A DNA stretch of 64,000 bases from Mobula hypostoma (Eukaryota). The stretch's first letter is position 1. Each line of letters starts with the position of its first letter. Below the pieces are notes generated by a model. It ran no database searches, had not been told where the DNA came from, and saw only the letters and a program-made list of their open reading frames with translations. The translations under genes were made by a program, and so were the position numbers. The DNA lies in contig NC_086097.1 of the NCBI RefSeq assembly GCF_963921235.1, positions 64,916,001 through 64,980,000 of the forward strand, given 5' to 3'. Below, piece by piece: positions 1 to 63,396 of this stretch.

Positions 1-1590
1 ATTTTTCCAGCTGGTCCAAGTCCCTCTGCAGGCTCTGAAAACCTTCCTCACTGTCTACTACACCTCCAATCTTTGTATCATAGCAAACTTGCTGATCCAA
101 TTTACCACATTATCATCCAGATCATTGATATAGGTGACAAATAACAATGGACCCAGCACTGATCCCTGTGGCACACCACTAGTCACAGGTCTCCACTCAG
201 AGAAGCAATTCTCTACCACCACTCTCCGGCTTCTTCCATTGAGCCAATGTCTAATCCAATTTACCACCTCTCCATGTATACCTAGCAACTGAATTTTCCT
301 AACTAACCTCCCATGTGGGACCTTGTCAAAGGCCTTACTGAAGTCCATGTAGACAATATCCACTGCCTTCCCTTCATCCACTTTCCTGGTAACCTCCTCA
401 AAAAACTCCAATAGATTGGTCAAACATGACCTACCACGCACAAAGCCATGTTGACTCTCCCTAATAAGTCCCTGTCTATCCAAATGCTTGTAGATCCTGT
501 CTCTTTGTACTCCCTCCAATAACTTACCTACTACCAACGTTAAACTCACCGGCCTATAATTTCCCGGATTACTTTTCGATCCTTTTTTAAACAACGGAAC
601 AACATGAGCTACTCTCCAATCCTCCGGCACTTCACCCATAGACAGCGACATTTTAAATATTTCTGCCAGGGCCCCTGTAATTTCAACACTAGTCTCCCTC
701 AAGGTCCGAGGGAACACTCTGCCAGGTCCCGGGGATTTATCCACTTTAATTTTCCTCAAGACAGCAAGCACCTCCTCCTTTTCAATCTGTACAGTTTCCA
801 TGATCTCACTGCTTGATTCCCTCAATTCCATAGACTTCATGCCAGTTTCCTTAGTAAATACAGAGGCAAAAAAACCAATTTAAGATCTCCCCCATTTCCT
901 TCGGTTCCGCACATAGCCGACCACTCTGATCTTCAAGAGGACCAATTTTTTCCTTACAATCCTTTTGCTCTTAATATACTTGTAAAAGCTCTTTGGATTA
1001 TCCTTCACTTTGACTGCCAAGGCAACCCCATGTCTTCTTTTAGACCTCCTGATTTCTTTCTTAAGTATTTTCTTGCACTTCTTATACTCCTCAAGCACCT
1101 GATTTACTCCCTGTTTCCTATACATTTCATACAACTCCCTCTTCTTCTTTATCAGAGTTGCAATATCCCTTGAGAACCAAGGTTCCTTATTCCTATTCAA
1201 TTTGCCTTTAATCCTGACAGGAACATACAAACTCTGCACTCTCAAAATTTCCCCTTTGAAGGCTTCCCACCTACCAAAGACATCTTTGCCGGAGAACAAC
1301 CTGTCCCAATCCACGCTTTTTAGATCCTTTCTCATTTCTTCAAATTTGGCCTTCTTCCAGTTCAACCTCAACCCTAGGACCAGATCTATCCTTGTCCATG
1401 ATCAAATTGAAACTAATGGTGTTATGATCACTGGAACCAAAGTGCTCCCCTACACAGACTTCCGTCACTTGTCCTAACTCGTTTCCTAACAGGAGATCCA
1501 ATATTGCATCCCCTCTAGTTGGTCCCTCTATATATTGATTTAGAAAACTTTCCTGAACACATTTTACAAACTCTAAACCATCTATCACCT
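1..1590 (-). mobile_element. CR1-clade LINE, 5'-truncated ORF2 (end of endonuclease to RT), frameshifted; runs off the window edge
   Basis: ORFs 1340-1588, 880-1371 and 58-840 carry ILDLLL/SDHN, PGNYRPVSLT, QHGF..GRSCLTNL, DFSKAFDKVPH and GVPQGSVLGP motifs. Confidence 0.95.
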
Positions 1591-3043: not shown

Positions 3044-4007
3044 AGAATCAGAATCAGTTTTATTATCATTGTCTTATATGATCCAAAATTTGTTCTTTTG
3101 CAATGGCAATAAAGTGCAGGTATATAAAATTACCATTAATTACTAAATAAATAATGAGTGCAGAAACAAAGAATAATGAGGTAGTGTTTATGGACAGTTC
3201 TCATATCCAAGGGGAGAGGGGAAGTTGTTCCTGAATCATTGAGTGTGGGTCTTCAAGCTCCTGCGACTTCACCTTGACAGTAGTAATGAGAAGAGGGCAG
3301 ATCTCAGATGTTGAAGGTCTTCATTGATGGATGTCGTCTTCTTGAGACACCACCTCTTGAAGATGTCTTCGATGGAGCGAGGGTTGTGCTGTGATGAAGC
3401 TGACTGAATCTGTAACACTTTGGAGCCTCCTGCCAGGATGAGAAGCAGCCAGTAAAAATGCTTTACACCAGACATCTATAGAAATTTCCAAGAGACTTGA
3501 TGACATACCAAATCTCAGCAAACTCATGACGAAGTAGAGTCACTGGCACGCTGCCCAGACAGATCCTCCAAGATGTTGGAATCCAAGAATTTAAAACTGC
3601 TCACCCTTTCTACTGCTGACCCTTCAATGAGGACTGATGTGTCCAACTTGCCCTTTCTGAAGTCCATAATCAGTTCCTTGGTCTTGCTGACATTAAGTGT
3701 GAGGTTGTTATTATGACACCACTCAACCATCCACTCTATCCTACTCCTCTGTGTTTCACCATTGCCATTGGAAATTTTGCCAAAAACCATGGTTTCATCT
3801 AGTATTTATAAATGCCATCTGAGCTGTGCTTAGCCGCACAGTCATGAGTGTGTGGCGAGAGTAGAACCGTGAACTAAGGATGCAATCTTGAGGTGCATCT
3901 GTGTTGATTATCACCAAGGAGTTTTTATCACCGATCTGTACTGACTGTAGCTTGCCGATGAGGAAGCCGGGGATCAATTGCAGAGGGAGGTCCAGAGGTC
4001 CAGATTT

Positions 4008-4566: not shown

Positions 4567-4633
4567 TGTAGAAGTTTGATGATTAATACTGAAGGGAGGA
4601 TGGTAATGAATGCCAAGCTGTAATTGATAAGCA

Positions 4634-4845
4634 AACAAGAGAAAATCTGCAGATGCTGGAAATCCAATTAACACACACAAAATGCTGGAGGAACTCAGCA
4701 GACCAGGCAGTATCTATGGAAAAAAGTACAGTCGACGTTTTGGGCAGAGCTTTGGCCAAAGGGCTTCAGCCTGAAACGTCGACTGTACTTTTTTTCCATA
4801 GATGCTGCCTTGCCTGCCGAGTTCCTCCAGCATTTTGTGTGTGTT
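4634..4845. mobile_element. Palindromic Penelope-like short element (inverted terminal fragments)
   Basis: Inverted arms at 4670-4740 and 4774-4845; flanking direct repeat GCTGTAATTGATAAGCA (4617-4633) / GCTGTAACTGATAAACA (4846-4862). Confidence 0.75.
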
Positions 4846-5422
4846 GCTGTAACTGATAAACAGCAGCTTAACGCATGCCTTGCTGTTGTCTAGATGCTTC
4901 AAAGCAGAGTGGAGAGTCTGAGATTACTTCTGCTGAAGAGCTGTTGTGGCTGTCGGCAAACCGCAGTGGGTCCAGGTCCTTGCTCAGGCAGGCATTAATT
5001 TTAGCCAAAACCAACCTCTCATAGTACTTTATTACCATAGATGTGAGTGCTGCCAGTCAATAGTCATTAAGGCAGTTCACCCTGGTTTTTTGGGTACTGG
5101 TATGATTACTGCCCTTTTAAAGGAGGTGACAGCCTCAGACCACAGCATGAGAGGCTGAAGGTGTCAAACGCTCCTGCTAATTGGTCATACAGGCTTTTAG
5201 TACCCAACCACATACACCATCAAGGTCTGATGCCTTGTGAGGGTTTATCCTTTTGAAGGATATTGTTAAAGGACATCAGTCTCTGAGACAGAGATCATAA
5301 GGTTGCCGGATGCTGTGGGGATTTGTACAAGTGTAGTGTTATCTGCCCTTTCAAAGCATGCATAAAAAACGTTGAGCTCATTGGGGAGTGAAGCCATTCG
5401 GAAACAATGGCAAGTTGTTGTG

Positions 5423-5553
5423 TAATAGTAATCTCTTACTATCTCTTCTTTCAGTTAGTCCTGACGAAGGGTCTCAGCCCGAAACGTCGACTCTACCTCT
5501 TCCTATAGATGCTGCCTGGCCTGCTGCGTTCACTAGCATTTTTTGTGTGTGTT
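5423..5553 (+). mobile_element. Short Penelope-like retroposed fragment with a 13-bp target-site duplication
   Basis: Exact direct repeat GCAAGTTGTTGTG at 5410-5422 and 5554-5566; same family as 1591-1787. Confidence 0.8.
5457..5492 (+). ncRNA. Minimal type I hammerhead ribozyme motif
   Basis: AGTC-CTGACGA-A-GGGT(CTCA)GCCC-GAAACGTC-GACT: helix I AGTC/GACT, CUGANGA and GAAA core boxes, helix II, palindromic ACGU in place of helix III, GUC cleavage triplet ending at 5488. Confidence 0.7.
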
Positions 5554-5947
5554 GCAAGTTGTTGTGCATATGATTGTGACTCTAATTTCACTCAGAATTG
5601 CTTTTTCACTCTCACAACATTGTACCTGTAATTTTTATGGGATTCTGGATTGCCAGTCTTGAATGCCACAGATCTAGCCCTCAGCAGAGTGTGAATCTCC
5701 AGCTTCATCCTAGACTTCTGACTTGGGAAAATTTGGTATGCTCTCGAAAGCATGCGCTCGTCATACAGGCCTTGAAGAAGTTGGGGATGGCTGAAGTATA
5801 TTCAATCAGATCTGAAGATAAATCCGTGACTACAGTTCAGTCAACCAGTTCAAAGCAGTGCTGTAAACAGTCACCCGCTTTCATTGACCAGACCTTCACC
5901 ATCCTCACCACTGGTGTCACAGTCCTCAGTCTCTGCCATATCACTGT

Positions 5948-17066: not shown

Positions 17067-20000
17067 TAGAAACATAGAAACATAGAAAATAGGTGCAGGA
17101 GTAGGCCATTCGGCCCTTTGAGCCTGCACCGCCATTTATTATGATTATGGCTGATCATCCAACTCAGAACCCCGCCCCAGCCTTCCCTCCATACCCCCTG
17201 ACCCCTGTAGCCACAAGGGCCATATCTAACTCCCTCTTAAACATAGCCAATGAACTGGCCTCAACAGTTTGCTGTGGCAGAGAATTCCACAGATTCACCA
17301 CTCTCTGTGTGAAGAAGTTTTTCCTAATCTCAGTCCTAAAAGGCTTCCCCTCTATCCTCAAACTGTGACCCCTCATTCTGGACTTCCCCAACATCGGGAA
17401 CAATCTTCCTGCATCTAGCCTGTCCAATCCCTTTAGGATCTTATACGTTTCAATCAGATCCCCCCTCAATCTTCTAAATTCCAACGAGTACAAGCCCAGT
17501 TCATCCAGTCTTTCTTCATATGAAAGTCCTGCCATCCCAAGAATCAATCTGGTGAACCTTCTTTGTACTCCCTCTATGGCAAAGATGTCTTTCCTCAGAT
17601 TAGGGGACCAAAACTGCACACAATACTCCAGGTGTGGTCTCACCAAGACCTTGTACAACTGCAGTAGTACCTCCCTGCTCCTGTACTCGAATCCTCTCGC
17701 TATGAATGCCAGCATACCATTCGCCTTTTTCACCGCCTGCTGTACCTGCATGCTCACTTTCAATGACTGGTGTATAATGACACCCAGGTCTCGTTGCACC
17801 TCCCCTTTTCCTAATCGGCCACCATTCAGATAATAATCTGTTTTCCTATTTTTGCCACCAAAGTGGATAACTTCACATTTATCCACATTAAATTGCATCT
17901 GCCATGAGTTTGCCCACTCACCCAACCTATCCAAGTCACCCTGCATCCTCTTAGCATCCTCCTCACTGCTAACACTGCCGCCCAGCTTCGTGTCATCCGC
18001 AAACTTGGAGATGCTGCATTTAATTCCCTCATCCAAGTCATTAATATATATTGTAAACAACTGGGGTCCCAGCACTGAGCCTTGCGGTACCCCACTAGTC
18101 ACCACCTGCCATTCTGAAAAGGTCCCGTTTATTCCCACTCTTTGCTTCCTGTCTGCTAACTAATTCTCCACCCACACCAATACCTTACCCCCAATACCGT
18201 GTGCTTTAAGTTTGCACACTAATCTCCTGTGTGGGACCTTGTCAAAAGCCTTTTGAAAATCCAAATATACCACATCCACTGGTTCTCCCCTATCCACTCT
18301 ACTAGTTACATTCTCAAAAAATTCTATGAGATTCGTCAGACATGATTTTCCTTTCACAAATCCATGCTGACTTTGTCCAATCATTTCTCCGCTTTCCAAA
18401 TGTGCTGTTATCACATCCTTGATAACTGACTCCAGCAGTTTCCCCACCACCGACGTTAGGCTAACCGGTCTATAATTCCCCGGTTTCTCTCTCCCTCCTT
18501 TTTTAAAAATTGGGGTTACATTAGCCACCCTCCAATCCTCAGGAACTAGTCCAGAATCTAACGAGTTTTGAAAAATTATCACTAATGCATCCACTATTTC
18601 TTGGGCTACTTCCTTAAGCACTCTAGGATGCAGACCATCTGGCCCTGGGGATTTATCTGCCTTCAATCCCTTCAATTTACCTAACACCACTTCCCTACTA
18701 ACATGTATTTCACTCAGTTCCTCCATCTCACTGGACTCTCTGTCCCTTACTATTTCTGGAAGATTATTTATGTCCTACTTAGTGAAGACAGAACCAAAGT
18801 AATTATTCAATTGGTCTGCCATGTCCTTGCTCCCCATAATCAATTCACCTGTTTCTGTCTGCAGGGGACCTACATTTGTCTTTACCAGTCTTTTCCTTTT
18901 TACATATCTATAAAAGCTTTTACAGTCCGTTTTTATGTTCTCTGCCAGTTTTCTCTCATAATCTTTTTTCCCCTTCCTAATTAAGCCCTTTGTCCTCCTC
19001 TGCTGAACTCTGAATTTCTCCCAGTCCTCAGGTGAGCCACTTTCTCTGGCTAATTTGTATGCTACTTCTTTGGAATTGATACTATCCCTAATTTCTCTTG
19101 TCAGCCACGGGTGCACTACCTTCCTTGATTTATTCTTTTGCCAAACTGGGATGAACAATTGTTGTAGTTCATCCATGCAACCTATAAATGCTTGCCATTG
19201 CATATCCACCGTCAATCCTTTAAGTGTCATTTGCCAGTCTATCTTAGCTAATTCACGTCTCATACCTTCAAAGTTACCCCTCTTTAAGTTCAGAACCTTT
19301 GTTTCTGAATTAACTATGTCACTCTCCATATTAATGAAGAATTCCACCATATTATGGTCACTCTTACCCAAGGGGCCTCTCACGACAAGATCGCTAATTA
19401 ACCCTTCCTCATTGCTCAAAACCCAGTCAAGAATAGCCTGCTCTCTAGTTGGTTCCTCGACATGTTGGTTCAAAAAACCATCCCGCATACATTCCAAGAA
19501 ATCCTCTTCCTCAGCACCTTTACCAATTTGGTTCACCCAGTCTACATGCAGATTGAAGTCACCCATTATAACTGCTGTTCCTCTATTGCACACATTTCTA
19601 ATTTCCTGTTTAATACCATCTCCGACCTCACTACTACTGTTAGGTGGTCTGTACACAACTCCCACCAGCGTCTTCTGCCCCTTAGTGTTACGCAGCTCTA
19701 CCCATATCGATTCCACATCTTCCCGGCTTATGTCCTTCCTTTCTATTGCGTTAATCTCTTCTTTAACCAGCAACGCCACCCCACCTCCCCTTCCTTCATG
19801 TCTATCCCTCCTGAATATTGAATATCCCTGAACGTTGAGCTCCCATCCCTGGTCACCCTGGAGCCATGTCTCTGTGATCCCAACTATATCATAATCATTA
19901 ATAACAACCTGCACTTTCAATTCATCCACCTTATTACGAATGCTCCTTGCATTGACACATAAAGCCTTCAGGCGCTCTTTTACAACTCTCTTAGCCCTTG

Positions 20001-20137
20001 TACAATTATGTTGAAAAGTGGCCCTTTTTAATGCTTGCCCTGGATTTGTCGGCCTGCCACTTTTACTTTTCTCCTTTGTACTTTTTGCTTCTATGCTCAC
20101 TTTACACCCCTCTGTCTCTCTGCACTGGTTCCCGTCC
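17067..20137 (-). mobile_element. Young CR1-clade LINE with near-intact ORF2 (APE endonuclease + RT), truncated at the ORF1/ORF2 junction
   Basis: ORFs 18775-20139, 18160-18726 and 17164-18138 are all in one frame, separated only by TAG codons at 18777-18775 and 18162-18160. NARS, GITETWL, GDFN, SDH and FADD motifs are present; (TAGAAACA)n tail at 17067-17089. Confidence 0.97.
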
Positions 20138-22459
20138 ATTGTGTGATATGTGTAACTAAAGGAATACTTCGATCCTATTTCAAAAAATGTGTGCCAAAGT
20201 CAGGCTTGGAACATGTTTCTGCACCCTGACTGCTTAATTTTAATTGGAATCATCATTAATTCATCCAGCTCACAAGTAAGTTTAGAAGAATGAATTTTGT
20301 GTTTTTTTCCATAGTGAAGATAAAGCAGTCATATATATTCAAATTATTATGATTTTTAAGAATAGTTTAATATTTCATAAATGAAACTGTAAAATCTTAG
20401 AAAAACAAATGACTACTGCTATATTGACTTAGTGACAGAGAGATCAGAAAAATTCTTCTTTACATAGCACCATAGTAAATTTCATGTCCATATTAACAAG
20501 GATTTTGCTTTTGCTTCATATAAAATAATATTATTAAAGTATCACTTGGTTAATGAAGTTAGGTGTTATTGTAGTGTTTGAATTATTGATCTGAATGGAC
20601 GAGTGTTACCAAAATGTCAAACTTATACTTTACTGGTAAGGTGTAAATATATGTAAGTTCACTGTTACACGTAGGAAATACAATTACAATTAGACTACTG
20701 TTTCTCTGAATAAATAATACTGTGAAAACTACATTACTACTAGAAGTGAAAATGTATATTTGTCAAAATAATTAACAGTGGTTAAAGTATAACAAAATAT
20801 TTTTAGGGTTCATGTTTTCATCAAGTTCATTTTTTTCACTCTGTTCCTGTTGCATATTCAAATTTTTTAAAAGTTGTTAATTAATATGAAAATACATGGC
20901 CATAGACCTATAAGCTGTTAAGGCTATGCAATACCTCAGTATTAAATTTAAATGTTTTCCTAAAATAACATTCAGTACTCTTGGAGGATCTAATAGGCAG
21001 GAACTTTAAAATTTGCCCCCCCATTGCAATAATTGACCTGGCATTCATTCCTTCATTGGAAAACGGTAGTTCTTTTGAAACTTTCATAGTTTGAATCTAT
21101 TTCAGAAGGTCGGAAGTGCTTTGGAATATCTGAAATAGGTAAAAGAACATTTACTAGCTATCACTTTCTTTGCATATAGGTCCAATCTTACAATTTCTTA
21201 AATTTCATATTGTGTGCTATGTTTAGTTTTATTCTTGCAGTGTAAACAATTGTACTTGTTTTTTTATTTCTGAGGCAGTGCATTTGCTTAGTTTGCAGGA
21301 ATCACTATTGTAAAGAACAGTAGATTATGCTTGTTGGAACTTTATGCTGATGTGTATTGTATCCAAGTACCAACATAGTGTTGCCACCCCTTCATCCTAC
21401 ACTTGTGCATCGATCTTTTCAATTACAACAGTAGATCGTCAGACCTTTAAGAATTTGTGAAGTAACTAATGGCGAGACTATCAATGTTTACTCTTATGGG
21501 GACGGAATAGTAACACAGCTTCTGGAGTACTAACATGCACAACTAATTATTGAACTGCCTCGGGTGTCATCCTGTTACCTATATGGGGCTTCTCCACAGA
21601 GGATACCGTTGCATTTGTCACCAACAGTGAGATAATAAAACCAGACAAACTTGCTGACAAAATTGGCCACTACTTCCCAATTAAGAATGATGGAAAAATC
21701 TTAGGCCCGACATATTCAAAGAGCAAAAGCTTTAAATGACATGATAAAGTATAACAGCTATACCTCTGGCACTGAACAAACAATTTAATAAGTATGCATT
21801 CTTCTTTTCTCAAAAAATAGTATGGATTGTTTTTCTTTCATCTTTCATCCCAATTTATGTATGCACTATACATATGAACAAGCATTTGGGAGAGCAGTGG
21901 TACAGATTTGCCAGCTGCTGCAGAGTTATGGGCATCATCAGCCACGTGGGAACTCAGTTCCCGACCACATTTCTGACCTAAAAACAAGTTACATTACAAA
22001 CAGTTCACAGGAAAAGAACCATGGGAAGGACCTGTATCTCTTTTCCTTAATCCAACTCTACTGACGATAGTAATCTTGCTTTCTATCACATGTCCTAATT
22101 TGTATTTCCCATTGTGAACAATGTGCCTAGAAATTGTTATATGCTTTAAAAGGTAACACTGATCTGAGGTTCCATGCTAGTTTTATGCATTTACCGAGAT
22201 TGTACACGTTAATTGTAAAAACAAAGTGCTCAATTTTTGCCTATATTTTATAAAACATGATTAATCCTGAACTTAGGGTGCCAGATTTACCGGTTATAAA
22301 TCATAATACCAAGATTACTGGAAATTTGAAATAAAGCAGAAACTGCTGGTCAGGCCAATAGGTTCGATTCAACAGATCGGGAAACATTTATTAATAGACC
22401 AAGGGTTAATACTTGGTTAATGACCTTATGACTGGATAAAAGGTCACCAGCTTGCCACA

Positions 22460-43618: not shown

Positions 43619-44289
43619 TCACCAGGTCCTACCATACAATAAAGTAGAGCATGACATGGCTGTACCATAATCAGAACTAGAAGAGTTTAGGTGAGACAAG
43701 CTAGTGACGTGGCTTTGGATAGAAGAAGGACTTGCTGCGGTTTGTCCTAATTCCGATGTCTGACCTGCGCTATTTGCTTGCTGACTTGGGCCGTGAGCTG
43801 CCCCACTGGTAGCCACAGTGATGGCGGTAGTTGTAGATTGTTGCTGCTGGGACTGAATGGTGGAGATTGGGGCATTGGCACCTCCTTGGCACGGTTTTCC
43901 ATCTTTAACCAGGACAGGCACAGCCACCCTTCTTGGAGATTGCTGTTGTTGCTGGCAAGTGCTGTTGTCCTGCTGCATGTGTTGTTGCGCCGCTTTGTCC
44001 TTCGCTTGTCGCTTCATCTTGTAGCGGTGGTTCTGGAACCAGATCTTCACCTGAGTGGGCGTGAGATGGATCATACTGGCCAAATGTTCCCTTTCAGGGG
44101 CTGAGAGGTATTTTTGCTGCTTGAAACGCCTCTCTAACTCATAAACCTGGGCTTGAGAGAAAAGCACTCTGCGTTTTCTCCTAGGTGTACTCTGGAGAGG
44201 AGCCATGGGTTTGCCAACGTCTCCCAGAGAACCCAGAGCCCCCATTCCGCCCATGTTCATGCCTGAAGACGGGGCCATGAAGCGGGAAA
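43619..44289 (-). CDS. NKX2-1: NK2 homeobox 1 (TTF-1), second coding exon (homeodomain, NK2-specific domain, C-terminus)
   Basis: Acceptor ...TATTCCCATTCAG| ends at 44290; splicing restores the conserved ISRFM. Contains [26 protein letters not shown]...[11 protein letters not shown] (Tyr54 NK2 homeodomain), [17 protein letters not shown] and the NKX2-1-type end [25 protein letters not shown]. Spliced CDS is 1041 nt = 346 aa. Confidence 0.95.
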
Positions 44290-45252
44290 CTGAATGGGAA
44301 TAAAAGAATAAACTCAGCAAAAACACCTTTGCAATGAGGTAAGTATACATTTTAAAACAACGTAGATACACTTACTGCAGCATTAATGTACTTATCAAAT
44401 ATCCAAGATCCAGTGGTGGCGCGCTCCTACCCCAACCAATTAAACTAACAGTTAGATTACTTCTTTCTGCAGCGAGTTTAAGTGAAACTGACTTCTAAAA
44501 TGTATCTATTAGCAAATGATCAGAGATTTAGTTATTTAAAAATAGACCTATTATTACTTTTTTTAAAAAAAAGGTTGAAATTAGGAATTAAGTATCTTTC
44601 AAAGTTTGAAGTGTACTTCCGCAGAATAAAATGACGCAGAGTATTATATTTGTGCAATTTGTGTACAAATACTATTACGGTTTTCAAATAATATTTGATA
44701 ATAAAATCGTGCAATTTATATTAGATGTATTAACATATGTAAAATATTTATCAATAAAGAGAACATATTGATTCCCTCTGTGCCGGCCTAATATATTTTT
44801 CAATTTAGTTCTTACACTGCTAAATCATGATTTAAATATTTAAATTGTTTAATCTGGGCACGACGGTGCAGCACCTGGAACACAAATGAACTGCTTTGTG
44901 CCGCGAGAAATGATTAAATAACCATGGGCAGGTAACTTGAGTTGTCCATAGATTTACTCCACGAAGCATAAAGATTAGCAATACCAGGAGAATCCGAGAA
45001 TGAAAACTAAGGGCGCAGAAATACAACCGAGTACAAATGCCCCGTGCAATTAGACATTCTTGCTCTAATCTTCTTGAAAATCAAAACACGCTAAACTTAT
45101 CATTTAGAAATGGAGGTGTTGAAGATACTGAATTTTGAACGCCATTTTCATTATTTTAACACAATTAGAATACCTGAAATATCTTTACTATTTCGACAGT
45201 GTGTTATTTAACCCATCGCCTTCACTAGTACACAGACAGTTATTTCACTTAC
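44290..45252 (-). other. NKX2-1: NKX2-1 intron, 963 nt, GT-AG, phase 1
   Basis: Canonical GTAAGT donor and pyrimidine-rich CAG acceptor; frame is preserved across the junction (A|TT = Ile). Confidence 0.92.
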
Positions 45253-45622
45253 TGGATGAAAAGCGTGGGTCTGGATTCGTCCCGTACCAGCTTGTCGCAC
45301 TCGCACTGTTCCTCATGGTATCTTGGTAAGCAGGAAGATCGCCCATGTTGCCAATGTTGCTGTTGCAGTAGCCTCCCATAGCAGCATGTGAAAGCTGGGG
45401 GACCCCGTGTGACATGTGGTAGGTCGCCGCAGGTACCGACGTATTATGTCCGATTGAATGCTGTTGCATTCCCGGCTGGGAGACCTGTGGCTGTCGGTAA
45501 GTTGTCAAGTGAGCGCCGAGGTTACCCGCTGCGTCCATGCCAACTTTCTTGTAGCTCTCCTCGATGGGGCTCAAAATATCTGAAACTGAGAAGGGCGTAG
45601 TGTGCTTGGGGCTCATCGACAT
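45253..45622 (-). CDS. NKX2-1: NK2 homeobox 1 (TTF-1), first coding exon (TN/eh1 domain)
   Basis: Translates [19 protein letters not shown]...[15 protein letters not shown] at 45622-45620; phase-1 donor GTAAGT at 45252-45247 (minus strand); 370 nt. Confidence 0.93.
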
Positions 45623-45905
45623 GGTTCAGCAGCGAAGTAGGCAAATTTGCTGAACGGATAAACAGTGTTATGTTAGCGCCGATCTTGTGGACGTACACGT
45701 AAGAGAGTGATTGAAGTCCGCCTTAATTGTATTAAGTCGAGGCTATAGACCTGCGAGCGCCTAGCTTTTGTTTGTTGTAGCCAGGCGCCAGGTTTTAGAC
45801 AGACAGGAGAGGCGGGGCATGAACGCAAACGAGCAAACAATAGAACTTAACATCTTGCTAAGATAATTAGGTAACATGCTGATGGCAACGTAAATACTTT
45901 CGAGT
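45623..45905 (-). promoter_or_regulatory. NKX2-1: NKX2-1 proximal promoter / 5' UTR
   Basis: Immediately upstream of the ATG; CpG-rich; GC box GAGGCGGGGC near 45809-45818. Blocks TAAAACCTGGCGCC and TTACGTGTAC..CCACAAGATCGGCG (minus strand) resemble the recalled mammalian NKX2-1 proximal promoter. Confidence 0.7.
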
Positions 45906-57304: not shown

Positions 57305-60300
57305 TTGAGATCATAAGGGTAGTAATTTCTGGAAAGCTACCTTTGCCTCACACCACTGAGGGTAGAAGCACAATGATTTGGCAGATAAATGCCTGGCTGA
57401 TAAGCTCATGCAGGGGGCAGGGCTTCAGGTTCTTGGATCACTGGGATCTCTTCTGGGGAAGGTATGTCCTGTGCAAAAGGGACGGGTTGCACCTAAACCC
57501 AAGGGGGTCCAATATTCTTGCGTGCAGTTTCGTTAGAGCTGTTGGGGAGGATTTAAACTAATCTGGCAGGGGAATGGGAACTGGATTGAAGGGACTCAGG
57601 ATAGGATGGATGGTAATAAAGCAAAGATAGCGTGCACTCAGACTGTCAGGAAGGGCAAGCAGATGATAGGACAAAATTGCAGCCAGCAGGGTGAGTATCA
57701 GTGCATTAGGGATGCAGATCAAAAACGGTAGCAAATACAGTAATCAAAGTGTCATATCTCAAAGCATGGAGTATAAGAAATAAAGTGGATGATCCTGTGG
57801 TACTTCTACAGATTGTTGTATTTTACTGTGGCCATCACTGAGTTGTGACTGAAAGATGGTTGCGGTTGGGAGCTGAATGCCCAAGGTTACACATTGTATC
57901 GGAGGGAGAGGAAGGTAGGCAGAGGGGGTGGCACGGCTCTGCTGATAAAGAATGGCATCAAATCATTAGGAAGTGGTCACATAGGATTGGAAGATGTTGA
58001 ATCCTTGTGGGCTGAGTTAAGAAACTGCAAGGGTAAAACAACGGAAAATAGAAAAGGCATGTCAAAAGGGCAAGTTATAATAGTTATGGGAGATTTTAAC
58101 ATGCAGACAGATTGGGTAAATCAGGTTGGTAATGGATCTCAAGAGAGTGAATTTGTTGAATACCTATGAGGTGGTTTTTAGAGCAGTTTGTCATTGAGCC
58201 TACTGTGGGATCAGCTATACTGGATTGGGTGTTATGTAATAAACCCGAGGTGATTAGGGAACTTAAGGTAAAGGAAACCTTAGGAGTCAGTGCTCACAAT
58301 ACGACTGAGTTCAACTTGAAATTTGATATGAAGAAAGTAAAGTCTGATGTAGCAGTACTTCAGTGGAGTAAAGGAAATTGCAGTGGCATGAGAGAGAAGT
58401 GGCCAAAATAAATTGGAAGGAGATGCTGGCCAGGATGACAGCAGAGCAGTAATGGTTTGAGTTTCTGGGAAAAATGTGGAAGGCGCAGGATAGATGTATT
58501 CCAGAAACAAAGAAATACTCAAATGGCTGACCAGGGAAGTCAAAGCTAATGTAAAAGCAAAAGAGAGGACATACGACAAAGCAAAAATTAGTGGCAAGAT
58601 AGAGGATTGGAAAGCTTTTAAAAACCTACAGAAGGCAACTAAAAGAATCATTAGGAGGGAGAAGATGAAATACAAAAGCAAGCTAGCAAACAATATCAAG
58701 GTGGATAGAAAAAGCTTTTTCAAGTATATAAAAAATAAAAGAGAGATGAGAGTGGATATAGGACTGATAGAAAATTAGGCTGGAGAAATAATAATGGGGG
58801 ACAAGGAGATGGCAGATGAACTAAATCAATATTTTGCATCAGTCTTCACTGTGGAAGAGACTAGCAGTGTGCCAGGTGTTGAATGGTGTGAGAGAAGAGA
58901 AGTGAGTGCAATTACTATTACAAGAAAGAAGGTGCTCAAATATCTGAAAGATTTAAAGGTACATAAGTCACCCGAACCAGATGAACTGCACACTAGAGTT
59001 CTGATAGAGATAGCAGCAGAGATTGTGGTAGATAATGATATTTCAAGAATCATTGGGTTCTGGCTGGTTCTGGAGGACTGAAAAATTGCAAATGTCATTC
59101 CACTCTTTAAAAAAGGAAATTATAGACCAGTAAGCCTGACCTCAGTGGTTGGAAAGATGTTGAAGTTAATTGTTAAGGATGAGGTTATGGAGTACTTGGT
59201 GACACAGGACAAAATAGGACAAAGTCAGCATGATTTCCTTAAGGGAAAATCTTGTTTGACAAACCTGTTGGAATTCTTTGAGGATATTACACCTAGGATA
59301 GATAAAGGGGATGCAGTGAATGTTGCATATTTGGATTATCAGGAGGCCTTTGACAAGGTGCCACACAGGAGACTGCCTACCAAGTTAAGAGCCGAAAGTA
59401 TTACAGGAAAGTTACCAGCGTGGTTGGAGCATGGTAGGAGGCAGTGAGTGGGAATAAAAGTATCCTTTTCTAGTTGGCTGCAAGTGGCTAGTGGTGTTCT
59501 GCAGGGGTCGGTGTTGGGAACCACTTCTTTTTATGCTGTTTGTCAGTGATTTGGATGATGGAATAGATGGCTTTGTCATCAGGTTTTCAGATGATACAAA
59601 GATTGGTGGATGGGCAGGGAGTGTTGAGGAAACAGGAAGGATGCAGAAAGACTTAGACAGATTAGGAAAATGGGCAAGAAAGTGGCAAATGAAATACCAA
59701 GTTGGAAAATGCATGGTCATGCACTTTGGTAGAAGAAGTAAATGTGCAGACTATTTTCTAAATGGGGAGAAAATTCAAAAATCTGAGATGCAAAGGGATT
59801 TGGGAGTCCTTGTATAGAACAACCTAAAGGTTAACTTGCAAGTTGAGTTGGAGGTGAGGAAGGCAAATAGAATGTTAGCATTCATTTCAAGAGGTCTGGA
59901 ATACAAGAGCAGGGATGTGATGCTGAGGCTCTATAAGGCACTGGTGAGGCTTCACCTTGTGAACAATTTTGGACTCCTCATCTAAAAAAAGATGTGCTGG
60001 CATTGGAGAGGGTCCAGAGGGGGTTCAGAAGATGATTCCAAGAATTAAAGGGTTATCCTATGAGGAACATTTGATGGCTCTGGGTCTGTACTCAGTAGAA
60101 TTTAGAAGGATGAGGGGGGAATTTAATTGAAACCTATCCATTGTTGAAAGGCCCAGACAAAGTAGATGTGGAAAGGATGTTTCCCATGCTGGGGGAGTCT
60201 AGGATAAGAGGCACAGCCTCAGGATAGGTAGGTGTCCTATTAAAACAGAAGTGAGGAGAAATTTCTTTAGCCAGAGGGTGGTGAATTTGTGGAATTTGTT

Positions 60301-60509
60301 ACTGCAGGCAGCTGTGGAGGTAAGTCGTTTGGTATATTTAAGGCGTAGATTGATAGGTTTTTCATTGGCCATGGCATCAAAGGCTACAGGTAGAAGGTCA
60401 GGGAGTAGGGCTGAGGAGGGGAAAAAAATAGGATCAGGCAAGGTTGAATGGCAGAGCAGTCTTGATAGGCCAAATGCCCTAAATCTACTGCTGTGTCTTA
60501 TGGTCTTAT
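57305..60509 (+). mobile_element. CR1-clade LINE with the ORF1 3' end (SGNH esterase-like) and a decayed ORF2
   Basis: ORF1 end FLDHWDLFWGR...RDGLHLNPRGSNILA...EDLN* (stop 57559-57561); EN and RT motifs in fragmented ORFs 57894-60514; (CTTATGGT)n tail at ~60494-60509. Confidence 0.95.
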
Positions 60510-61300
60510 CATAAGACACAAGAGGAGAATCAGGCCATTCAGCCCATTGAGACTGCTCTGCCATTCCATTATAGCTGATTTGTTTTCCTATTCTCGTACC
60601 TTCTCCTCATTACGTCTGATGCCCTTACTAATTAAGAACCCATTACTCTTTGCTTTAAGTATTTATTTGTCATAATCACATTTACCATTTTCCTCTACCA
60701 TCTGACTTACGTCTCTAGCAAAAAGGAAATGTCTCCAGTTTCTCAAAACTGCTCCGTCATTCAATATGATTGTGGATGGTCTGATCTCAGTTTCAGTTCC
60801 AATTTCTTGTCAATTTTCCTCAATCCTTGACTTCCGTACAATGCAAAAATCTATCTTCCTCTTGGATATTTTCAGTGATTCATCTGTCCTATCTAACTAG
60901 GATGGAGAATTTCCAAGATTCATGATTGTCAGGGAGAAGAATCACATCCCAGTCTTAAAGAAGCAACCCTTATCCTGAAACAGTGCTGTCTATTTCTAGT
61001 TTTTCCATGACAGGAAACATGGTCCCAGTGAGTACGCTGTAGGCACCTTTAGTATCTCAAATGTTGCAATTAGCTCACTTTTCATTTCTTTTGATTCCAA
61101 TAAGTATAGCCCTATCTTGATCAATCATTCATCTTTACAGCAATCTTCTCATCCCAAGCACCAACATATTGAATTCCTCTGAACTGCCTCCAATCTGTGC
61201 TCAGATTTGAAGACCAGACAATCTACTGGAGTGTCTCAGCACCCAGTACACCAGGTGCCAGCTCACTTACAGGTACAGAAAGTTTTAGCTACTTTGTACT
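60510..61300 (-). mobile_element. CR1-clade 3' fragments (a short tip at 60510-60660 and an older piece at ~60720-61300)
   Basis: Reverse-strand similarity to CR1 3' ends; the tip abuts the previous element tail-to-tail. Confidence 0.65.
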
Positions 61301-62029
61301 TCTCACTCTGCTTTATTGCTGTTGATGTGTGTGCTTTGTTTTTCAATATTTTTAACAAGCAACAGACTTAGATAAGTTGATAATCTAATTTTTATATATG
61401 ATTATTCATTGATCACTGGGGTAGCAGTAATTACCCATGTTAAACATGTGCTTCTTAATGTTCTATGATTGTAGATTTGACCTTCAGTACTCATTGGAAT
61501 TTCACATTGTCCACTAAGGCATCAGACCAGACTAACATCCATTGTCGATCTTGTCTTTCTCTGTGGATTTTATTATCAGGGCACAAGAAAGAGATCCATT
61601 TTCAAGTAATCTATGTATTTTGTACTTAATGTGCTGGCAGAATCTTTTCTTAAATACAGTATTCCTTTTTCACATTGCTCTGTTTTAAATCACATATATT
61701 ATTTATAAAATTCTTCTATGCACTTAACTTCATTGGTTACGTACCATATTGTTAAATGGAACATAAATATAGTAATGAAAGCAATAATTTGAAAATAGCA
61801 TGATACAAAGCCTTATTTAAACTTCTAATCTTTATTGTGTCATTTTTATGTGTTCATTTTATTTTACTGATAGAAGCAGCCCTAAACTTTAGCAGTAGTT
61901 GGCCTTCTAAATGGAGCAGAAGGCAATACAAAATACCAAATGCAGATCACAGGAGTCAACCACTTATTAGACCCAAATCAGTACGAAGAACAGTAAAGAA
62001 CAAAAAAAAATCTGGCATCTGCAGCTTAC

Positions 62030-63396
62030 AGGCCAGTTAGCCTGACCTCAGTGGTTGGGAAGATGTTGGAGGCTTTGGGGGACTTGGGGGCACATAATAA
62101 AATAAGCTAAAGCCAGTATGGTTTCCTTAAGGGAATATCTTGCTGACAAATCTGTTCAAATTCTTTGAAGAAGTAACAAACAGGATAAACAAGAGAGAGT
62201 CAGTGGAGGCTGTTTACTTGGATTTTCAAAAGGCCTTTGACAAGGTGCTGCCATGAGGCTGCTTGACAAGATCAGAGCACATGGTATTACAGGAAAGATA
62301 CAAGCATGGATAAAAGATTTGCTGACTGGTAGGAGGCAAAGAATGGAAACAAAGGGGTCCTCATCTGGTTGGCTGCCAGTGATTAGTGGTGTTCTGTAAG
62401 GGTGGGTATTGGGACAGCTTCTTTTCACATTGTACGTCAAAGATTTGGATGACAGATTTGATGGCTTTGTGGCCAAGCTGGCAGATGATATGAATATAGT
62501 TGGAGGGGCAGGTAGTGTTGAGGAAGCAGGGAGTCTGCAGAAGGACTTAGATAGATTGGGAGAATGGGCAAAGAAGTGGCAGTTGGAATATAGTGCAGGG
62601 AAGTGCATAGTCATACATTTTGATTGAATTAATAAAGGCATAGACTACTTTCTTAACAGGGAGAAAATTCAAAACTCAGAGGTGTAAAGGGACCTAGGAG
62701 TCTTTGTGCAGGATTCCCTGAAGGTTAATTTGCAGGTTGAGTTAGTGGTAAGGACGGCAAATACAGTGTTAGCATTCATTTCAAGAGGACTAGAACATAA
62801 AAGCAAGGATCTAATGCTAAGGCTTAAAAAGGCATTGGTATTGCAAGCAGCTTTGAACCTCTTATCTGAGAAAAGAAATGTTGGCATTGAGGACAGTCCA
62901 GAGGAGGTACACAAGAATGATTCCAGGAATGAAAGGGTTAATAAATGAAGAGATTTTGATGGCCCTTGGCCTGTACTCTCTGGAGTTAAGAAGAATGAGG
63001 GGGATCCCATGAAACCTATCATATATTGGAAGACCTAGATATAATGGATGCGGAGAGGATATTTCCTGTAATGGATGAGTTTAGGACCAGAGGGCACAAC
63101 CTCAGGATAAAGGGACGTCCATTTAGAACAGAGATGAGGAGAAATTTCTTTAGCCAGAGGGTAGTGAATCTGTGGAATTCATTGCCACTGGGAGCTGTGG
63201 ATGCCAAGAAATTGGGTATATTTTAGGTGGAGGTTGATAGGTTCTTGCTTAGTCAGGACATCAGAAGTTACGGAGGTAAGGCAAGAGAATGGGGCTGAGA
63301 GGGATAACAAATCAGCCGTGAAGGAATGGCAGAGCACACACAGGATCAATGGGCTGAATGGTCTAAATTCTGTTCCTATGTCTTATGCTCTCATGT
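62030..63396 (+). mobile_element. CR1-clade LINE RT/3' part, decayed
   Basis: KLADD..GG, LQKDLDRLGEWAKKWQ, TRGHNLRIKG..FFSQRVVNLWNSLP; tail at 63375-63396. Confidence 0.92.

Follow-up and report, generated by a model that had tools for sequence, protein, structure and literature searches.

A minimal hammerhead motif in the Mobula hypostoma genome lies in a probable 5'-truncated terminal repeat of an autonomous Penelope-like element

We analysed a stretch of 64,000 nucleotides of the Mobula hypostoma genome (hereafter the window; contig NC_086097.1, positions 64,916,001 to 64,980,000, forward strand), in which a short insertion carries a hammerhead ribozyme motif. The insertion comprises the following features.

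5410..5422, + strand: left-hand copy of the duplicated target site (target-site duplication, TSD), identical to 5554-5566, included in the controlled TSD test
5423..5429, + strand: 5' addition foreign to the family; 5425-5429 repeats 5438-5442 in inverted orientation, and 5423-5424 perhaps belong to a longer TSD
5430..5555, + strand: 3' end of the terminal repeat (pLTR) of a Penelope-like element (PLE), the last 126 nt of the unit, with no tail; corresponds to 3382-3507 of the 3508-nt unit of locus L047 (88%), and 94-98% identical to 29 other loci
5457..5492, + strand: minimal type I hammerhead with helices I and II, CUGACGA, an extra A, GAAA, ACGU and C17 at 5488; identical to the core of locus L031 (36/36)
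5554..5566, + strand: right copy of the TSD, whose first 2 nt overlap the end of the element

Six or seven further decayed pLTR pieces were present in the window, none with an intact core. At 4631-4749 (-) and 4759-4847 (+), 600 bp from the hammerhead insert, pLTR pieces of an older subfamily stand head to head; one arm only has the tail and both are without the CUGA box, as in a typical inverted PLE insertion. LINE-type RT/endonuclease remains occur at 58-1401 (-), 17164-20199 (-) and 59082-63201 (+), the second being near full length by its appearance and spread over three frames, and a hairpin with 70-bp arms lies at 60433-60579. Two exon-like homeobox frames on the - strand (43619-44371 and 45245-45625) presumably represent exons of an NKX2-1-type homeobox gene, the insert being located about 38 kb beyond the 3' end of this gene. 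A tblastn search of the window with the Penelope ORF gave 0 hits, in line with the preliminary description, which had seen no RT/GIY-YIG partner ORF there.

Helix I of the hammerhead (4 bp) pairs 5457-5460 with 5489-5492, and helix II (4 bp) pairs 5469-5472 with 5477-5480 around the loop 5473-5476. The CUGACGA box corresponds to 5461-5467 and is followed by an extra A after A9 (5468), and GAAA to 5481-5484. Helix III is reduced to the palindrome ACGU at 5484-5487 (A15.1-C15.2-G16.2-U16.1), with no loop, and GTC at 5486-5488 places C17 at 5488, with a predicted cut after C5488. All conserved hammerhead bases were present in the window copy and the pairs were checked; the intact core with both catalytic boxes, helices I and II and a GUC site thus reads as originally claimed, and its assignment to the minimal type I hammerheads of PLEs, with a palindromic helix III, agrees in the core and in the extra features with the available text of Cervera and De la Pena (2014, PMC4209133). 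Relative to the majority of 27 gap-free close copies, the window copy differed solely at 5476 (loop II) and 5493 (outside the core), and its core is thus intact. Exact matching of the 34-letter core pattern on both strands of the 3.48-Gb genome gave 24,774 + 24,815 = 49,589 matches, against 0 + 0 for the reversed pattern, so that the core cannot be due to chance. Rfam gave 0 hits for the whole window at gathering score and 0 hits for 5300-5700 at E up to 10, a null result that is uninformative since the motif is without helix III. The folding z-scores of the region were not significant (-0.8 to -1.5). The case for the hammerhead is made by the motif, its position within the element and its copy number, not by folding.

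The parent element was recovered by a DNA search of the same genome (1,745 candidates, of which the best 40 were scored and 30 fetched). The fetched loci matched 5430-5555 at 94-98% and most of them continued upstream. Among 28 independent close copies (the window copy and one duplicate excluded), 14 reached an ORF encoding RT and GIY-YIG, as mapped on the full-length element, and copy lengths ranged from about 126 nt to more than 1.6 kb. L031, 95% identical to the window copy over 125 nt, runs without interruption for 2.3 kb together with sequence coding for RT and GIY-YIG (PF01541, 25 bits for a cut-off of 22.6). A protein search with the RT part produced 52,368 candidates, the best 150 of which were scored, with some frames of about 1,000 residues. 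Twelve loci were chosen among these matches for their long frames; four of them (L047, L050, L056, L057) were organised as pLTR-ORF-pLTR, each repeat containing a hammerhead, and in three (L047, L048, L049) an unbroken frame extended from the start region across RT and EN. The L047 protein contains DKG, YIDD, a CX4CxxC linker (residue 880) and GVIY-CxxC-YIG, in a single ORF with RT and, at its C terminus, GIY-YIG carrying the CCHH residues. Pfam scores of the full ORFs were significant, though below the curated cut-offs (RVT_1 22.5-28.3 bits, GIY-YIG 15.9-20.8, E 1.8e-06 to 0.017), and the Atlas neighbours of the element protein were RT/GIY-YIG clusters at 0.97. The anatomy of a PLE was recovered: pLTRs, 5' truncation, inverted 5' copies, an optional tail and TSDs of variable length. 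The pLTRs of the full elements were just 85-90% identical to the window copy, so that the full-ORF elements form a sister subfamily. None of the loci examined was a full-length copy with an unbroken ORF from the subfamily to which the window copy belongs, and this subfamily was thus possibly copied in trans.

We therefore consider it highly probable that the insert was copied, with truncation at the 5' end, from the terminal repeat of an autonomous PLE, likely of Neptune type, and that the hammerhead is cargo of the repeat and likely inert at this site. The clade assignment depends on one motif. In the available text of Craig et al. (bioRxiv 2021.04.23.441226), a Zn-finger-like CX2-5CxxC motif in the RT-EN linker is the criterion for Neptune; the CX4CxxC linker motif thus indicates Neptune or Nematis, which shares the motif, and not Poseidon; Neptune is the likely type. 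An assignment to Poseidon was rejected, since the Penelope/Poseidon group is defined by a linker without Zn-finger.

The boundaries of the insert were examined in a controlled test. The identical 13-base stretches 5410-5422 and 5554-5566, separated by 131 nt, confirmed the exact 13-bp TSD of the preliminary description, refined here to 11-13 bp because 5554-5555 also fit the element's own end; should 5423-5424 belong to it, the TSD could be 15 bp with one mismatch. Shared stretches of at least 10 nt were found in 7 of 25 loci, the window included, versus 0 of 506 mismatched flank pairs; they measured 10-15 nt in the seven positive loci and were absent from the 18 others. This count excludes L005, L020, L028 and L029, whose 5' ends lay beyond the locus, and L009, a duplicate of L008, and it includes L007 and L026 with short left flanks. 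Directly after the element end, WAGT was present in five tail-less copies (L001, L003, L006, L002, L008), a possible target preference.

The insert is short, flanked by a TSD and without ORF in the window, features that would also suit a dedicated non-autonomous family of about 130 nt (SINE- or retrozyme-like) spreading itself with the PLE enzyme, and PLE derivatives of this kind have been reported in vertebrates in the available text of a 2026 preprint (bioRxiv 2026.07.22.740005). Five of the 28 close copies (L003, L015, L018, L022, L030) started within 12 nt of the same point, although the query itself favours copies starting at 5430. However, the 5' ends were spread from 126 nt to more than 1.6 kb, half of the copies reaching the ORF, and no fixed 5' boundary or length was shared; a base foreign to the family immediately ahead of 5430 was seen in no more than 207 exact-pattern copies, and the junction was shared by 2 of these, one of them being the window copy. 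Moreover, retrozymes are defined as tandem arrays whereas the window copy is single. The length spread largely refutes a short non-autonomous family, which we regard as very improbable, and the separate dispersed family of non-coding retroposons first proposed for this insert had to be abandoned.

The 5'-truncated PLE repeat also fits what we observed at the 3' ends, which were bimodal: 12 of the 28 close copies stopped where the pLTR does, as the window copy also does, and 16 had a tail of 20-45 nt. The 3' end of the window copy is 68 nt past C17, and loose ends in contigs of presumed type from sequencing runs fell at the same two 3' places, 39 nt apart. This is the tail that has been tied to two internal RT start sites (PMC11167929). 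An adjacent inverted 5' piece was found in 10 of the 28 close copies, and inverted 5'-truncated copies are described for PLEs in the available text of Craig et al. (bioRxiv 2021.04.23.441226).

By analogy with other PLEs, from which we infer the insertion steps and the behaviour of the ribozyme, the GIY-YIG domain of the element would nick both strands about 11-13 bp apart, and, of two start points within the RNA of the element, RT would use the nearer, 68 nt 3' of where the ribozyme cuts, which could explain why the window copy has no tail. RT would then copy 126 nt, and the cDNA would briefly fold back on itself before being joined to the target. Full elements carry the ribozyme in both pLTRs; the RNA is predicted to be cut solely as a double hammerhead, the CUGA/GAAA strand of one copy cleaving the GUC of the other, probably with the help of the element's protein.

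The fold-back would account for the 5' junction. The pairing of 5425-5429 with 5438-5442 closes a hairpin on the cDNA strand (7-bp arms, 4-nt loop, -3.6 kcal/mol), and the junction is likely an aborted fold-back. The same turning point was observed in L022, a locus chosen for its likeness to the window, with 7 added bases, and in L089, with an inversion of about 88 bp and its own 13-bp TSD. The turn thus recurs, but a hot spot was rejected, since the 2 of 207 copies with this junction (the window copy included) compare with about 0.3 expected by chance. The junction could represent the frozen first step in the formation of PLE inverted ends, a reading to which we give slightly less than an even chance: in such a snap-back, the new cDNA would fold through a stem of 2 bp and a loop of GAGA, then copy itself, over 5 nt in the window copy, 7 in L022 and about 88 in L089. 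If true, this genome, with its tens of thousands of young copies and its unbroken ORFs, would permit direct tests both of pLTR inversion by snap-back and of the job of the PLE hammerhead.

The preliminary description had suggested that this copy may still be catalytically competent. This stands for the core, intact at the sequence level, but not for the lone copy, which is without helix III and whose predicted fold buries the core. In nearest-neighbour estimates, which leave out tertiary contacts, the best monomer fold (-11.9 kcal/mol), in which the cleavage strand is base-paired to the CUGACGA box, is favoured over the open hammerhead (-7.9 kcal/mol). N7 is a C (5465) in this copy, with which the box can pair with the cleavage strand (5485-5488) in the monomer, and the predicted pairing is possibly a built-in off state; this C belongs to a CpG and decays in many copies. 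The double hammerhead was modelled as a nested structure that is valid and would have one strand cut the other. The window contains no second intact family core, and the predicted folds make the lone copy likely to be inert at its site.

One could nevertheless imagine the window copy working as a ribozyme on host read-through RNA, for instance by supplying an enzyme strand to the half site within the same-strand copy at 4759-4847, or to other copies in trans, given that all its core bases are intact, with departures from the subfamily majority at 5476 and 5493 alone, and that the genome offers tens of thousands of potential partners. This seems very doubtful to us: two folded monomers (-23.8 kcal/mol) are predicted to be more stable than the double hammerhead (-14.7 kcal/mol) by about 9 kcal/mol, and the copy at 4759 is paired with its own inverted partner at 4631-4749. 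Published minimal PLE hammerheads showed no cleavage as monomers and low cleavage as dimers in the available text of PMC4209133 (a dimer model of their cleavage is given in the available part of a review), and cleavage by the hammerhead of PAc, a PLE of Anolis carolinensis, was seen exclusively with protein and was not needed for insertion in vitro (PMC11167929).

The core was nearly invariant among 68 distinct hits, so that covariation of the helices could not be shown. At the pair 10.2/11.2 of helix II, the one pair probed genome-wide, we found 53 double changes; the 30 inspected comprised 16 A-U double transitions, 2 U-A and 12 unpaired, and look like neutral decay. In diverged subfamilies the core is retained although the sequence on either side has changed, which fits selection on the core, though pattern searches favour such an outcome. 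A merely coincidental hammerhead shape, the 36 nt being conserved for another reason such as protein binding, would agree with the lack of compensatory pairs (18 of the 30 double changes restore the pair, 16 of them as plain double transitions) and of Rfam hits, but is the least probable reading of all, given that every conserved core base is present where PLEs carry the motif, that three extra features outside the published descriptor (the base after A9, G10.1-C11.1 and the palindromic 15.2-16.2; PMC4209133, available text) occur as well, and that the core outlasts its flanks in diverged subfamilies.

Two side observations concern the region of the core. The stretch 5434-5458 contains a CTTAC resembling a branch point, together with a pyrimidine tract and an AG, immediately ahead of helix I or at its start, and a YAG after a pyrimidine-rich stretch occupied this site in 88 of 95 distinct cores. 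The end of the Drosophila virilis Penelope intron maps to the 5' end of helix I according to the available text of PMC4209133; none of the 15 joints listed here (76 more lie beyond these) was spliced into the AG that precedes helix I. Furthermore, contigs of sequencing run X8 aligned to 5456-5492 showed joints from 5492 back to 5456-5458, which suggest that another organism has the bare 36-nt core in tandem units; they could be a mini-retrozyme or an assembly artefact.

By itself, the locus matters little, being one of at least 49,589 like cores. The family is a very abundant and recently active PLE with unbroken ORFs, which could serve the study of PLE hammerhead function and of the formation of inverted ends and tails. 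Our search, confined to the literature, found no paper on PLE hammerheads of sharks or rays; one Chondrichthyes genome was sampled in the 2026 preprint (bioRxiv 2026.07.22.740005), to judge from its available text.

Among known systems, non-LTR retrozymes, as presented in the available parts of PMC7229834 and bioRxiv 2026.07.22.740005, resemble the insert in being non-coding, in their type I hammerhead and in their proposed origin from PLE pLTRs. They form tandem arrays giving circular RNA, whereas the insert is a single truncated pLTR; assignment to the non-LTR retrozymes, which requires an array of at least two units, was thus rejected. The element shares with the EN+ PLEs of the Neptune and Nematis clades, as described in the available text of bioRxiv 2021.04.23.441226, the RT with C-terminal GIY-YIG, the two cysteines inside the motif, DKG, the CX2-5CxxC linker, partial tandems, inverted 5'-truncated copies and a 30-40-bp tail. 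Like PAc, which is a Poseidon element (PMC11167929), it has a hammerhead near the pLTR-ORF junction and two 3' ends (RT starts) downstream of the hammerhead that define the tail. PAc is without linker Zn-finger, unlike the present element, and its ORF starts inside the ribozyme, whereas the probable start codon of the present element lies 139 nt 3' of C17, past both RT starts.

The closest likeness is with the minimal hammerheads in the pLTRs of metazoan PLEs (Cervera and De la Pena, 2014, PMC4209133), reported in fishes for PLEs of the Xena, Poseidon and Neptune types. With those described in the available text, the window copy shares type I, a 4-bp helix I, an extra base between 9 and 10.1, G10.1-C11.1 (G5469-C5480), the palindromic 15.2-16.2 (C5485/G5486) and the lack of loop 3, as well as the commonest published situation, mostly single dispersed copies from truncated PLEs. 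Helix II has 4 bp here and 7-8 bp in the Schistosoma families, and the matches number at least 49,589 here versus about 4,000 in coelacanth and 9,000 in Xenopus, obtained by another search method. The sister subfamily with intact ORFs differs by G10.1-U11.1, all the listed copies of L046-L057 having T for C at position 11.1. Apart from covariation, every feature testable here identifies the insert as a truncated pLTR with a PLE minimal hammerhead; the presence of the hammerhead motif in PLE ends was already known, and the window copy is an ordinary example of it.
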